From Escherichia coli (GTDB lineage: Bacteria > Pseudomonadota > Gammaproteobacteria > Enterobacterales > Enterobacteriaceae), in NCBI RefSeq assembly GCF_003334765.1, contig NZ_QOWT01000028.1: 52,994 bases of DNA; one strand, written 5' to 3'. The notes below the pieces were generated by a model. It did no database searches and was not told where the DNA came from. It saw only the letters and a list, made by a program, of their open reading frames with translations. A program made the translations under genes and the position numbers. This document shows, one piece after another, positions 4,715-38,757 of this stretch (position 1 is the first letter of the stretch; the number at the start of each line of letters is the position of its first letter).

Positions 4715-6514
<1,800 letters not shown>

Positions 6515-6524
6515 GGACACGATA

Positions 6525-8027
6525 ATGACGATTTTTGATAATTATGAAGTGTGGTTTGTCATTGGCAGCCAGCATCTGTATGGCCCGGAAACCCTGCGTC
6601 AGGTCACCCAACATGCCGAGCACGTTGTTAATGCGCTGAATACGGAAGCGAAACTGCCCTGCAAACTGGTGTTGAAACCGCTGGGCACCACGCCGGATGA
6701 AATCACCGCTATTTGCCGCGACGCGAATTACGACGATCGTTGCGCTGGTCTGGTGGTGTGGCTGCACACTTTCTCCCCGGCCAAAATGTGGATCAACGGC
6801 CTGACCATGCTCAACAAACCGTTGCTGCAATTCCACACCCAGTTTAACGCGGCGCTGCCGTGGGACAGTATCGATATGGACTTTATGAACCTGAACCAGA
6901 CTGCACATGGCGGTCGCGAGTTCGGCTTCATTGGCGCGCGTATGCGTCAGCAACATGCCGTGGTTACCGGTCACTGGCAGGATAAACAAGCCCATGAGCG
7001 TATCGGTTCCTGGATGCGCCAGGCGGTCTCTAAACAGGATACCCGTCATCTGAAAGTCTGCCGTTTTGGCGATAACATGCGTGAAGTAGCGGTCACCGAT
7101 GGTGATAAAGTTGCCGCACAGATCAAGTTCGGTTTCTCCGTCAATACCTGGGCGGTTGGCGATCTGGTGCAGGTGGTGAACTCCATCAGCGACGGCGATG
7201 TTAACGCGCTGGTCGATGAGTACGAAAGCTGCTACACCATGACGCCTGCCACACAAATCCACGGCGAAAAACGACAGAACGTGCTGGAAGCGGCGCGTAT
7301 TGAGCTGGGGATGAAGCGTTTCCTGGAACAAGGTGGCTTCCACGCGTTCACCACCACCTTTGAAGATTTGCACGGTCTGAAACAGCTTCCAGGTCTGGCC
7401 GTACAGCGTCTGATGCAGCAGGGTTACGGCTTTGCGGGCGAAGGCGACTGGAAAACCGCCGCCCTGCTTCGCATCATGAAGGTGATGTCAACCGGTCTGC
7501 AGGGCGGCACCTCCTTTATGGAGGACTACACCTATCACTTCGAGAAAGGTAATGACCTGGTGCTCGGCTCCCATATGCTGGAAGTCTGCCCGTCGATTGC
7601 CGTAGAAGAGAAACCGATCCTCGACGTTCAGCATCTCGGTATTGGTGGTAAGGACGATCCTGCCCGACTGATCTTCAATACCCAAACCGGTCCAGCGATT
7701 GTCGCCAGCCTGATTGATCTCGGCGATCGTTACCGTCTGCTGGTTAACTGTATCGACACGGTGAAAACACCGCACTCCCTGCCGAAACTGCCGGTGGCGA
7801 ATGCGCTGTGGAAAGCGCAACCGGATCTGCCAACTGCTTCCGAAGCGTGGATCCTCGCTGGTGGCGCGCACCATACCGTCTTCAGCCATGCGCTGAACCT
7901 CAACGATATGCGCCAGTTCGCCGAGATGCACGACATTGAAATCACGGTGATTGATAACGACACCCGCCTGCCAGCGTTTAAAGACGCACTGCGCTGGAAC
8001 GAAGTGTATTACGGATTTCGTCGCTAA
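6525..8027 (+). CDS. araA: L-arabinose isomerase
   Basis: 500-aa protein [24 protein letters not shown]...; start ATG 6525, 10 nt after the araB stop. Confidence 0.96.
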
Positions 8028-8050
8028 GTAGCCACATCAGGTATGTAACG

Positions 8051-8128
8051 CCTGATGCGACGCTGACGCGTCTTATCTGGCCTACACGCTGCGATTTTGT
8101 AGGCCGGATAAGCAAAGCGCATCCGGCA
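8051..8128. repeat. REP pair (BIME) in the araA-araD spacer
   Basis: gcctgatgcgacgctgacgcgtcttatctggcctac and inverted gtaggccggataagcaaagcgcatccggca. Confidence 0.75.
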
Positions 8129-8135
8129 TTGTTTT

Positions 8136-8173
8136 CCCCCTCGCCCCTTTGGGGAGAGGGCCGGGGTGAGGGG
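8136..8173. repeat. GC-rich imperfect palindrome just upstream of the araD RBS
   Basis: cccctcgcccctttggggagagggccggggtgagggg; the arms CCCTCGCCCC / GGGGAGAGGG can pair with one mismatch. Confidence 0.5.
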
Positions 8174-8195
8174 AAACGACCTCTCAGGAGTCAAC

Positions 8196-8891
8196 ATGTT
8201 AGAAGATCTCAAACGCCAGGTATTAGAAGCCAACCTGGCGCTGCCAAAACACAACCTGGTCACGCTCACATGGGGCAACGTCAGCGCCGTTGATCGCGAG
8301 CGCGGCGTCTTTGTGATCAAACCTTCCGGCGTCGATTACAGCGTCATGACCGCTGACGATATGGTCGTGGTTAGCATCGAAACCGGTGAAGTGGTTGAAG
8401 GTACGAAAAAGCCCTCCTCCGACACGCCAACTCACCGGCTGCTCTATCAGGCATTCCCCTCCATTGGCGGCATTGTGCATACGCACTCGCGCCACGCCAC
8501 CATCTGGGCGCAGGCGGGTCAGTCGATTCCAGCAACCGGCACCACCCACGCCGACTATTTCTACGGCACCATTCCCTGCACCCGCAAAATGACCGACGCA
8601 GAAATCAACGGCGAATATGAGTGGGAAACCGGTAACGTCATCGTAGAAACCTTTGAAAAACAGGGTATCGATGCAGCGCAAATGCCCGGCGTTCTGGTCC
8701 ATTCCCACGGCCCGTTTGCATGGGGCAAAAATGCCGAAGATGCGGTGCATAACGCCATCGTGCTGGAAGAGGTCGCTTATATGGGGATATTCTGCCGTCA
8801 GTTAGCGCCGCAGTTACCGGATATGCAGCAAACGCTGCTGGATAAACACTATCTGCGTAAGCATGGCGCGAAGGCATATTACGGGCAGTAA
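8196..8891 (+). CDS. araD: L-ribulose-5-phosphate 4-epimerase
   Basis: 231-aa protein [32 protein letters not shown]...; class II aldolase/epimerase; start ATG 8196. Confidence 0.95.
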
Positions 8892-8965: not shown

Positions 8966-11317
8966 GTGGCGCAGGCAGGTTTTATCTTAACCCGACACTG
9001 GCGGGACACCCCGCAAGGGACAGAAGTCTCCTTCTGGCTGGCGACGGACAACGGGCCGTTGCAGGTTACGCTTGCACCGCAAGAGTCCGTGGCGTTTATT
9101 CCCGCCGATCAGGTTCCCCGCGCTCAGCATATTTTGCAGGGTGAACAAGGCTTTCGCCTGACACCGCTGGCGTTAAAGGATTTTCACCGCCAGCCGGTGT
9201 ATGGCCTTTACTGTCGCGCCCATCGCCAATTGATGAATTACGAAAAGCGCCTGCGTGAAGGTGGCGTTACCGTCTACGAGGCCGATGTGCGCCCGCCAGA
9301 ACGCTATCTGATGGAGCGGTTTATCACCTCACCGGTGTGGGTCGAGGGTGATATGCACAATGGCACTATCGTTAATGCCCGTCTGAAACCGCATCCCGAC
9401 TATCGTCCGCCGCTCAAGTGGGTTTCTATAGATATTGAAACCACCCGCCACGGTGAGCTGTACTGCATCGGCCTGGAAGGCTGCGGGCAGCGCATCGTTT
9501 ATATGCTGGGGCCGGAGAATGGCGACGCCTCCTCGCTTGATTTCGAACTGGAATACGTCGCCAGCCGCCCGCTGCTGCTGGAAAAACTCAACGCCTGGTT
9601 TGCAAACCACGATCCCGATGTGATCATCGGCTGGAACGTGGTGCAGTTCGATCTGCGAATGCTGCAAAAACATGCCGAGCGTTACCGTCTTCCGCTGCGT
9701 CTTGGGCGCGATAATAGCGAGCTGGAGTGGCGCGAGCACGGCTTTAAAAACGGCGTCTTTTTTGCCCAGGCTAAAGGTCGGCTAATTATCGACGGTATCG
9801 AGGCGCTGAAATCCGCGTTCTGGAATTTCTCTTCATTCTCGCTGGAAACTGTCGCTCAGGAGCTATTAGGCGAAGGAAAATCTATCGATAACCCGTGGGA
9901 TCGAATGGACGAAATTGACCGCCGTTTCGCCGAAGATAAACCTGCGCTGGCAACTTATAACCTGAAAGATTGCGAGCTGGTGACGCAGATCTTCCACAAA
10001 ACTGAAATCATGCCATTTTTACTCGAACGAGCAACGGTGAACGGCCTGCCGGTGGATCGGCACGGCGGTTCGGTGGCAGCGTTTGGTCATCTCTATTTTC
10101 CGCGAATGCATCGCGCTGGTTATGTCGCGCCTAATCTCGGCGAAGTGCCGCCGCACGCCAGCCCTGGCGGCTACGTGATGGATTCACGGCCAGGGCTTTA
10201 TGATTCAGTGCTGGTGCTGGACTATAAAAGCCTGTACCCGTCGATCATCCGCACCTTTCTGATTGATCCCGTCGGGCTGGTTGAAGGCATGGCGCAACCT
10301 GATCCAGAGCCCAGTACCGAAGGTTTTCTCGATGCCTGGTTCTCACGGGAGAAACATTGCCTGCCGGAGATTGTGACTAACATCTGGCATGGGCGCGATG
10401 AAGCCAAACGTCAGGGTAATAAGCCGCTTTCGCAGGCGCTGAAGATCATTATGAATGCCTTTTATGGCGTGCTCGGCACCACCGCCTGCCGCTTCTTCGA
10501 TCCGCGCCTGGCATCGTCGATCACCATGCGTGGTCATCAGATCATGCGGCAGACCAAAGCATTGATTGAAGCGCAGGGCTACGACGTTATCTACGGAGAT
10601 ACCGACTCGACTTTTGTCTGGCTAAAAGGTGCACATTCGGAAGAAGAGGCGGCGAAAATCGGTCGTGCACTGGTGCAGCACGTTAACGCCTGGTGGGCGG
10701 AAACGCTGCAAAAACAACGGCTGACCAGCGCATTAGAACTGGAGTATGAAACTCATTTCTGCCGTTTTCTTATGCCAACCATTCGCGGAGCTGATACCGG
10801 CAGTAAAAAGCGCTACGCCGGGCTGATTCAGGAGGGCGACAAGCAGCGGATGGTGTTTAAAGGGCTGGAAACCGTGCGCACCGACTGGACGCCGCTGGCC
10901 CAGCAGTTTCAGCAGGAGCTGTACCTGCGTATCTTCCGCAACGAGCCATATCAGGAGTACGTCCGCCAAACCATCGACAAACTGATGGCGGGTGAACTGG
11001 ATGCGCGGCTGGTTTACCGTAAACGCCTTCGCCGTCCGCTGAGCGAATATCAGCGTAATGTTCCGCCTCATGTACGCGCCGCTCGCCTTGCCGATGAAGA
11101 AAATCAAAAGCGCGGTCGCCCCTTGCAATATCAGAATCGCGGCACCATTAAGTACGTATGGACCACCAACGGCCCGGAGCCGCTGGACTACCAACGTTCA
11201 CCACTGGATTACGAACACTATCTGACCCGCCAGCTACAACCCGTGGCGGAGGGAATACTCCCTTTTATTGAGGATAATTTTGCTACACTTATGACCGGGC
11301 AACTTGGGCTATTTTGA
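8966..11317 (+). CDS. polB: DNA polymerase II (B family)
   Basis: 783-aa ORF beginning at GTG 8966 ([17 protein letters not shown]...); exonuclease and polymerase motifs (YGDTDS). Confidence 0.95.
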
Positions 11318-34126: not shown

Positions 34127-34209
34127 GCCTGATGCGACGCTAATGCGTCTTATCAGGCCTACGGGAGCACGAATGTAGGCCGGATAAAGCGTTTACGCCG
34201 CATCCGGCA
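34127..34209. repeat. REP pair (BIME) in the caiA-caiB spacer
   Basis: gcctgatgcgacgctaatgcgtcttatcaggcctac and gtaggccggataaagcgtttacgccgcatccggca. Confidence 0.75.
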
Positions 34210-38582: not shown

Positions 38583-38757
38583 GCCGGATGCGGCGTAAAC
38601 GCCTTATCCAACTCTGCTGGAGAGCAACCGTAGGCCGGATAAGATGCGCCAGCATCGCATCCGGCGATAGCTGTCGGATGCGGCATAAACGCCTTATCCA
38701 ACCCGGCTGGAGAGCAACCGTAAGCCGGATAAGATGCGCCAGCATCGCATCCGGCGA
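38583..38757. repeat. tandem duplication of an 85-bp REP-pair (BIME) unit, period about 90 bp
   Basis: Copy A 38583-38667 and copy B 38673-38757 are near-identical (gccggatgcggcgtaaacgccttatccaac...gccggataagatgcgccagcatcgcatccggcga) with a few substitutions. Confidence 0.8.

Follow-up and report, generated by a model that had tools for sequence, protein, structure and literature searches.

BIME-2 elements consist of tandem pairs of y and z2 REP sequences joined by short linkers, and the number of their units is variable among strains (Bachellier 1997/1999; Ton-Hoang et al. 2012, PMC3333891). Strain-to-strain variation of BIME number at one locus has been published (PMC3333891). Gyrase, Pol I and IHF reportedly bind REPs, for which a role as topological insulators has also been described (PMC3333891), and binding or cleavage of REP and BIME-2 sequences by gyrase, Pol I and TnpA-REP is known from the literature (PMC3333891). 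When located between two cistrons, REPs stabilise the upstream mRNA (summarised in PMC3333891).

The repeat called TMECO is the one named BoxC in the 1990s and later PIT, for potential intrastrand triplex (PMC4666352); it has been described in Bachellier et al. 1999, Hoyne et al. 2000 and Holder et al. 2015 (PMC4666352). K-12 has 23 listed TMECO copies (Table S8, PMC4666352), and an earlier survey cites a published BoxC length of 56 bp, its own model having 50 bp (PMC2267715). Distances from BoxC copies to ORFs range over 10-310 nt without a preferred value, and the copies are tied to no gene class (PMC4666352). PIT elements were found to have neither promoter nor terminator activity nor an effect on RNA polymerase, according to work of the Maher laboratory (reference 41) as summarised in PMC4666352. 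In vitro, CD and NMR showed the G-rich strand of type B TMECO oligonucleotides folding into an intrastrand purine-motif triplex (PMC4666352). When the complementary strand is present a duplex forms, and DMS footprinting in vivo did not bear out a stable DNA triplex (PMC4666352). Purine-motif triplexes do not form in RNA, according to Holder et al. (PMC4666352). TMECO loci are also associated with intergenic variability (PMC4666352).

Both repeat families are found in the araA-araD spacer of the window analysed here, a stretch of 52,994 nucleotides from Escherichia coli (contig NZ_QOWT01000028.1). The ara region lies on the + strand of the window, with araB at 4814-6514 and polB starting at 8966. 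The araA stop codon TAA (8025-8027, + strand) and the araD start codon ATG (8196-8198, + strand) delimit a spacer of 168 bp (8028-8195), the length given in the first-pass annotation; the araD Shine-Dalgarno (SD) sequence AGGAG (8186-8190, + strand) lies 5 nt upstream of the ATG. A 371-bp query across the spacer matched many complete E. coli genomes at 100% identity, and in strain E2865, whose sequence is 100% identical, araA and araD have exactly the window's positions in the RefSeq annotation, both codons included. We consider it probable that the spacer as a whole is a REP/BIME and BoxC mosaic subject to a four-allele length polymorphism, in which the REP pair would act as a barrier and BoxC would be a near-neutral passenger. 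The mosaic begins right after the araA stop with a truncated REP tail and one BIME-2-type unit, followed by a BoxC of type B before the araD ribosome-binding site (RBS).

The two inverted REP units reported in the first-pass annotation are indeed present, arranged head to head. Following the definition of Ton-Hoang et al. 2012 (PMC3333891), a y-type REP in inverse orientation occupies 8050-8085 (- strand) with CTAC at its end (8082-8085), and a z-type REP occupies 8099-8128 (+ strand) with GTAG at its start (8099-8102). Both 8099-8128 and the inverted 8050-8085 are imperfect palindromes of the 30-40 nt REP type with GTAG 5' of the stem foot, and a 13-nt linker, ACGCTGCGATTTT (8086-8098), lies between them. 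Based on these sequence features, the y and z REPs together are one BIME-2-type unit. We counted 12 copies of the REP core GTAGGCCKGATAAG across the 53-kb window versus 0.01 expected, as befits the high-copy REP and BIME-2 repeats. GTAG-headed imperfect palindromes, inverse orientation and a short linker thus liken the spacer to BIME-2, as does the presence at this locus of one, two or three 85-bp units in tandem, depending on the strain. It differs in that the window holds a single unit and no tandem array, while other alleles of the locus carry 2 or 3.1 units, and in that its z REP is called z-type without a split into z1 and z2. Further REP cores in the window lie at 2662-2703, 15152-15165, 22992-23005, 34149-34188, 38630-38733 and 47707-47750, several of them forming head-to-head pairs (BIMEs).

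Upstream of the pair, comparison with the 85-bp unit of multi-unit alleles delineated a truncated z-type REP tail, AGCCACATCAGGT (8030-8042, + strand; compare AGCGCATCCGGCA at 8116-8128), which went unmentioned in the first-pass annotation. This tail and the first bases of the y REP (8050-8057) make up a predicted 8-bp hairpin (-11.8 kcal/mol, z -3.0), the first base of which is 7 nt past the araA stop. REPs located no more than about 15 nt from a stop codon are said, by Liang, Rudd and Deutscher in 2015, to stall terminating ribosomes and to reduce the output of the upstream gene. Within the literature searched, nothing specific to the araA-araD REPs came up. An Rfam search of the spacer gave no family above threshold and returned only naRNA4 (RF02564), membership of which was rejected as the best hits reached 28.9 and 23.4 bits versus a gathering threshold of 59.5. 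The naRNA4 family, from the REP325 cluster, has REP sequence and structure in common with the spacer, and the sub-threshold hit reflects this REP content.

As the first-pass annotation suggested, the region folds stably as RNA: 8028-8200 reaches -75.5 kcal/mol (z -4.08), a value that none of 200 shuffles equalled. Most of this signal comes from the REP pair, which is predicted to form a single long hairpin of -40.9 kcal/mol (z -5.0). The BoxC RNA hairpin, whose stem joins the C block to the third block, is predicted at -27.2 kcal/mol with a z of only -1.9, modest because any sequence so rich in G and C runs folds well; as DNA the same hairpin is worth -12.7 kcal/mol. An RNA G-quadruplex in the G-rich half was considered and discarded, being worth -12.6 kcal/mol in isolation and beaten by the C-block hairpin in every context. 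The REP pair and BoxC are each predicted to form a stable stem-loop on the polycistronic araBAD transcript. The REP pair is also the sole feature kept in all alleles of the locus. Intercistronic REPs at malE-malF and hisJ-hisQ were reportedly characterised as mRNA stabilisers by Newbury et al. in 1987. Like these, the araA-araD spacer has a REP pair between two cistrons with a very stable predicted mRNA stem-loop; unlike these, the stabilising function at araBAD is one we infer by analogy. By that analogy, the most likely role of the REP pair in ara mRNA is that of a 3'-to-5' exonuclease barrier, which would stabilise the upstream araB-araA message relative to araD.

The GC-rich imperfect palindrome that the first-pass annotation placed at 8136-8173 is real, but it is made of three blocks rather than two and its core is 8138-8173. 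On the + strand, this core comprises CCCTCGCCC (8138-8146), a loop CTTTG, GGGAGAGGG (8152-8160), a loop CCG, GGGTGAGGG (8164-8172) and a final G. Positions 8138-8172 fit the TMECO consensus CCCTCNCCC-N3-6-GGGNGAGGG-N3-GGGNGAGGG, quoted from Holder et al., NAR 2015 (PMC4666352), with zero mismatches, and the motif has 1 match in the window versus 0.00 expected from shuffles. The second loop, CCG, is that of type B, type A having TTA. We fetched the K-12 BoxC copies by their coordinates in Table S8 (PMC4666352) and compared the flanks of 17 of them, from 12 loci: type B copies are preceded by TTTTC[CT] and often followed by AAA(A), and type A copies are preceded by cGGTC. Because of these subtype-specific flanks, we set the limits of the whole element, including its family-typical TTTTCC...AAA flanks, at about 8132-8176 (45 bp, + strand). 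Thus, by every feature that can be read from its sequence, 8138-8173 is a BoxC/PIT/TMECO element of type B. It is close to the SD, as first reported, although the gap is 12 nt and not about 15 (end at 8173, SD from 8186).

Other copies of the element are readily found. The 36-mer of the window is identical to K-12 TMECO copy #3 (282101-282136, yagA-yagE), and in a K-12 derivative without an ara match the query matched only over 8132-8173, which is this yagA-yagE copy. The 36-mer is equally identical to row 63 of Table S8, E. coli HS 68479-68444 (PMC4666352). These coordinates fall within the HS araD-araA spacer, which is 168 bp long and identical to that of the window. Since row 63 sits in an identical spacer, the BoxC at araA-araD had already been catalogued; we found the HS locus by position, as the Holder supplement gives coordinates and no araD, araA or polB names. 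The element is intergenic and dispersed, occurring at 21 places in the window-like genome of E2865 and with a median of 12 per genome. Consequently, the view of the palindrome as a structure specific to the araD locus is not tenable, and it belongs instead to a dispersed family with about 20 copies per A/B1-type genome.

The araA-araD copy has all the traits of the family, with an exact consensus, the type B loop CCG, an intergenic position, multiple genomic copies and a locus listed in HS. Nothing essential sets it apart, except that it lies inside an operon, 12 nt from an SD and beside a REP pair, and that K-12, the main strain of BoxC characterisation, is without a copy at this locus. A K-12 counterpart is BoxC #19 (TMECO #19, pstA-pstB, region 3908340-3908680), which is likewise intercistronic inside an operon, pst. 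That copy differs, however, in being of type A and in reverse orientation to transcription, so that the mRNA carries the C-rich complement, and in having no adjoining REP pair. The K-12 BoxC copies downstream of adk and at frlR-yhfS have 3' flanks that enter REP-like sequence (…CAGGCCGGAT and …GCCGGATGC) within about 40 nt. Since these two copies run into REP-like sequence, BoxC beside REP is not peculiar to araA-araD.

The figure given in the first-pass annotation, a K-12 spacer about 116 bp longer, proved exact: in MG1655, araD lies at 65855-66550 and araA starts at 66835, leaving a spacer of 284 bp. Its attribution of the difference to REP copy number was right as far as it went, since BIME number does vary (3.1 units in K-12 versus 1 in the window), but it is an incomplete account of the 116 bp, which is a net value. 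The difference of 284 - 168 bp arises because K-12 gains 170 bp from two additional BIME units but is short of the 54-bp BoxC segment. Alignment of the spacer across strains, here the window against K-12 plus 11 further loci, yields four length classes. The 114-bp allele has one 85-bp BIME unit (e.g., IAI39); the 168-bp allele has one unit plus BoxC (e.g., the window, E2865 and HS); the 199-bp allele has two units (e.g., O157:H7); and the 284-bp allele has three (e.g., K-12 and the B2-type strains F11 and APEC O2:K1). Tandem Repeats Finder detected 3.1 copies of the 85-bp unit in the K-12 spacer and no tandem array in the window.

In 11 of the 11 non-BoxC loci and in K-12, including IAI39 and the B2-type strains, the REP is joined to the SD by a common junction, GGCA-CGA-AGGAG. 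The window reads GGCA-TTG-[45-bp BoxC]-CGA-CCTCTC-AGGAG. Of its 54 allele-specific bp, 45 match the family consensus and the other nine are TTG and CCTCTC. The bases TTG lie at 8129-8131 and are absent in the 114-bp allele; their TT matches the inter-unit linker GGCATTCAAC of multi-unit alleles. CGA (8177-8179) corresponds to the bases found between REP and SD in every non-BoxC allele, and CCTCTC (8180-8185, + strand) comprises six bases that are restricted to the BoxC allele and lie outside the BoxC consensus. Neither a target-site duplication nor a clear donor was recognised for the 54-bp segment. CCTCTC resembles the first block, CCCTCTCCC, of the other BoxC subtype. It might be the remnant of a second, inverted BoxC, comparable to the paired copies at hrpB-mrcB, six bases being too few to tell.

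With a 141-bp query running from the z REP through BoxC to the araD start, the BoxC allele was detected at a coverage of at least 80% in 1569 of 5426 complete genomes, about 29% of E. coli; an independent 63-bp BoxC query returned 1566 genomes at the same minimum coverage. About 1300 records, counted over all records, have a best match of at least 99% identity to the 63-bp query, and such strong conservation of the allele could stem from recent spread or from constraint. The 371-bp query was covered to at least 80% in 2844 genomes. As a rough estimate from coverage classes and evenly spaced sampling, about 1275 genomes have the 114- or 199-bp alleles, and the remaining 2580 or so mostly have the 284-bp one. 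All 12 evenly sampled rows of the BoxC allele have the same 371-bp span, which suggests that BoxC goes together with just one BIME unit. A version of this allele longer by 2 bp (143 versus 141 bp, 98.6% identity) was observed at NZ_CP028772.1 4173461-4173603, in E. coli strain A2 from a platypus.

As to how these alleles arose, BIME units may have been gained and lost through slippage or unequal recombination among tandem copies. BoxC would be a derived insertion in an A/B1-type lineage. The number of TMECOs per genome is 1-7 in B2 and F versus 19-30 in A/B1 (Table S7, PMC4666352). Because TMECOs are few in B2 and F, and because diverse backgrounds share the GGCA-CGA-AGGAG junction, insertion is favoured over repeated loss and is, judging from the sequences, the most likely history.

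The first-pass annotation further proposed that stable structure this near the RBS could modulate araD, for which our computations give no support. In the predicted fold the araD SD is outside the BoxC stem. Its opening energy in the window is 2.4-3.3 kcal/mol, versus 0.2-3.5 kcal/mol in six other alleles over three sequence contexts, and for footprints of -15..+5 and -20..+15 the ranges overlap fully between alleles. The SD of the BoxC allele is nonetheless consistently harder to open, by about 1 kcal/mol, than those of the 114- and 284-bp alleles, an excess that we ascribe to the ability of the extra CCTCTC to pair with GGAG. Together with CGA and GTC, CCTCTC is predicted to form a weak 5-bp hairpin over the GGAG of the SD, of -3.7 kcal/mol and z +0.6, no better than shuffles. 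In non-BoxC alleles, the stem of the z REP ends 3 nt from the SD, nearer than BoxC does in the window. Consequently, stable structure beside the araD RBS is the rule at this locus and not a novelty of the BoxC allele. A translational operator sequestering the RBS was rejected, as the SD lies outside the stem and its opening energies overlap with those of the other alleles across the three contexts. An intrinsic terminator was rejected as well, with 0 terminator-like sites on either strand of 7700-8500 and a stem followed by AAACGACC; nor were promoter-like sites found on either strand.

Three other explanations deserve weighing against the mosaic of BIME-2-type unit and BoxC passenger. That the palindrome arose by chance in a spacer rich in G and C might be argued from the z of just -1.9 of the isolated BoxC hairpin, but this has next to no probability and we discard it: the motif is expected 0.00 times in shuffles, it matches the 36-nt family consensus exactly and it is identical to other genomic copies. 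Action at the DNA level, by a BoxC triplex or by gyrase binding to BIME-2, could lead to replication pausing, topological insulation, or an instability driving the length polymorphism. The in vitro triplex of type B, the greater variation of TMECO loci between strains relative to control intergenic sites (PMC4666352), the reported binding of gyrase, Pol I and IHF to REPs (PMC3333891) and the four alleles at araA-araD itself all point in this direction. Yet type B DNA is a duplex when its complementary strand is present and the in vivo DMS data lend no support to a stable triplex (PMC4666352), the length variation is accounted for by the 85-bp tandem BIME unit and is seen in genomes without BoxC at the locus, and the BoxC allele looks stable, given the constant span of the 12 sampled rows. 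We regard such DNA-level action as very improbable.

The third alternative takes the BoxC hairpin and CCTCTC as a cis modulator of araD, lowering or tuning translation initiation through a changed standby site or partial pairing of the SD, or else creating an RNase processing or stabilising site that alters the AraA:AraD ratio. In its favour, 9-12 nt separate the -27.2 kcal/mol hairpin from the SD, pairing of CGACCTCTCAGGAGTC over GGAG is possible, opening the SD costs about 1 kcal/mol more than in the 114- and 284-bp alleles, and the allele is both frequent and well conserved. Moreover, L-ribulose-5-phosphate is toxic, as assayed in PMC7269641, and AraD dosage would matter for that reason. 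Against this, the SD-proximal hairpin does no better than shuffles, the opening energies of the ribosome footprint overlap those of other alleles, in alleles devoid of BoxC a REP stem comes to within 3 nt of the SD, and BoxC copies at large lie 10-310 nt from ORFs with no gene-class link and no promoter or terminator activity (PMC4666352). While a modest effect of the BoxC allele on AraD translation is possible according to the folding models, a cis-modulator function is unlikely, and we are equally doubtful that, in the approximately 29% of E. coli concerned, BoxC and CCTCTC measurably shift the yield of AraD or the processing of araBAD mRNA compared with BIME-only alleles. If they did, a 'selfish' repeat would be a natural expression variant at a place where AraD dosage guards against toxic L-ribulose-5-phosphate, and this would be the first demonstrated gene-expression effect of any BoxC element. 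The mosaic reading is the one we retain: BoxC would leave the SD unpaired and take the place of the REP stem as the structure closest to the RBS, and in the light of the folding models it is most likely a near-neutral passenger. Nothing that we computed predicts a sizeable effect on expression.

The araA-araD repeats are thus real, correctly placed and beyond chance, but ordinary. Both repeat families, the variation of BIME number between strains and the TMECO at this exact position in HS are already known. What is gained is a corrected annotation of the spacer as one BIME-2-type unit plus a BoxC of type B, which amends the view of the K-12 length difference as simple REP copy-number variation. 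In addition, four natural alleles in a well-studied operon offer a convenient test bed for the effects of BoxC and of REP number on a downstream cistron.

Two minor observations pertain to the BoxC sequence itself. The third BoxC block contains a GTG (8166) from which araD can be read in frame without meeting a stop, so that a mechanical ORF of 8166-8891 equals araD plus 10 codons. This GTG has no SD upstream and RefSeq starts araD at the ATG; the extension is probably meaningless. Beyond the enterobacteria, the exact TMECO pattern is, among the matches listed, very abundant in Mitsuaria chitosanitabida, with dozens of sites, as well as in a Contendobacter MAG and a groundwater MAG of Methylomirabilota. 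Many of these listed sites form inverted pairs with a spacing of about 30-230 bp. Their occurrence agrees with the wide distribution described by Holder et al.
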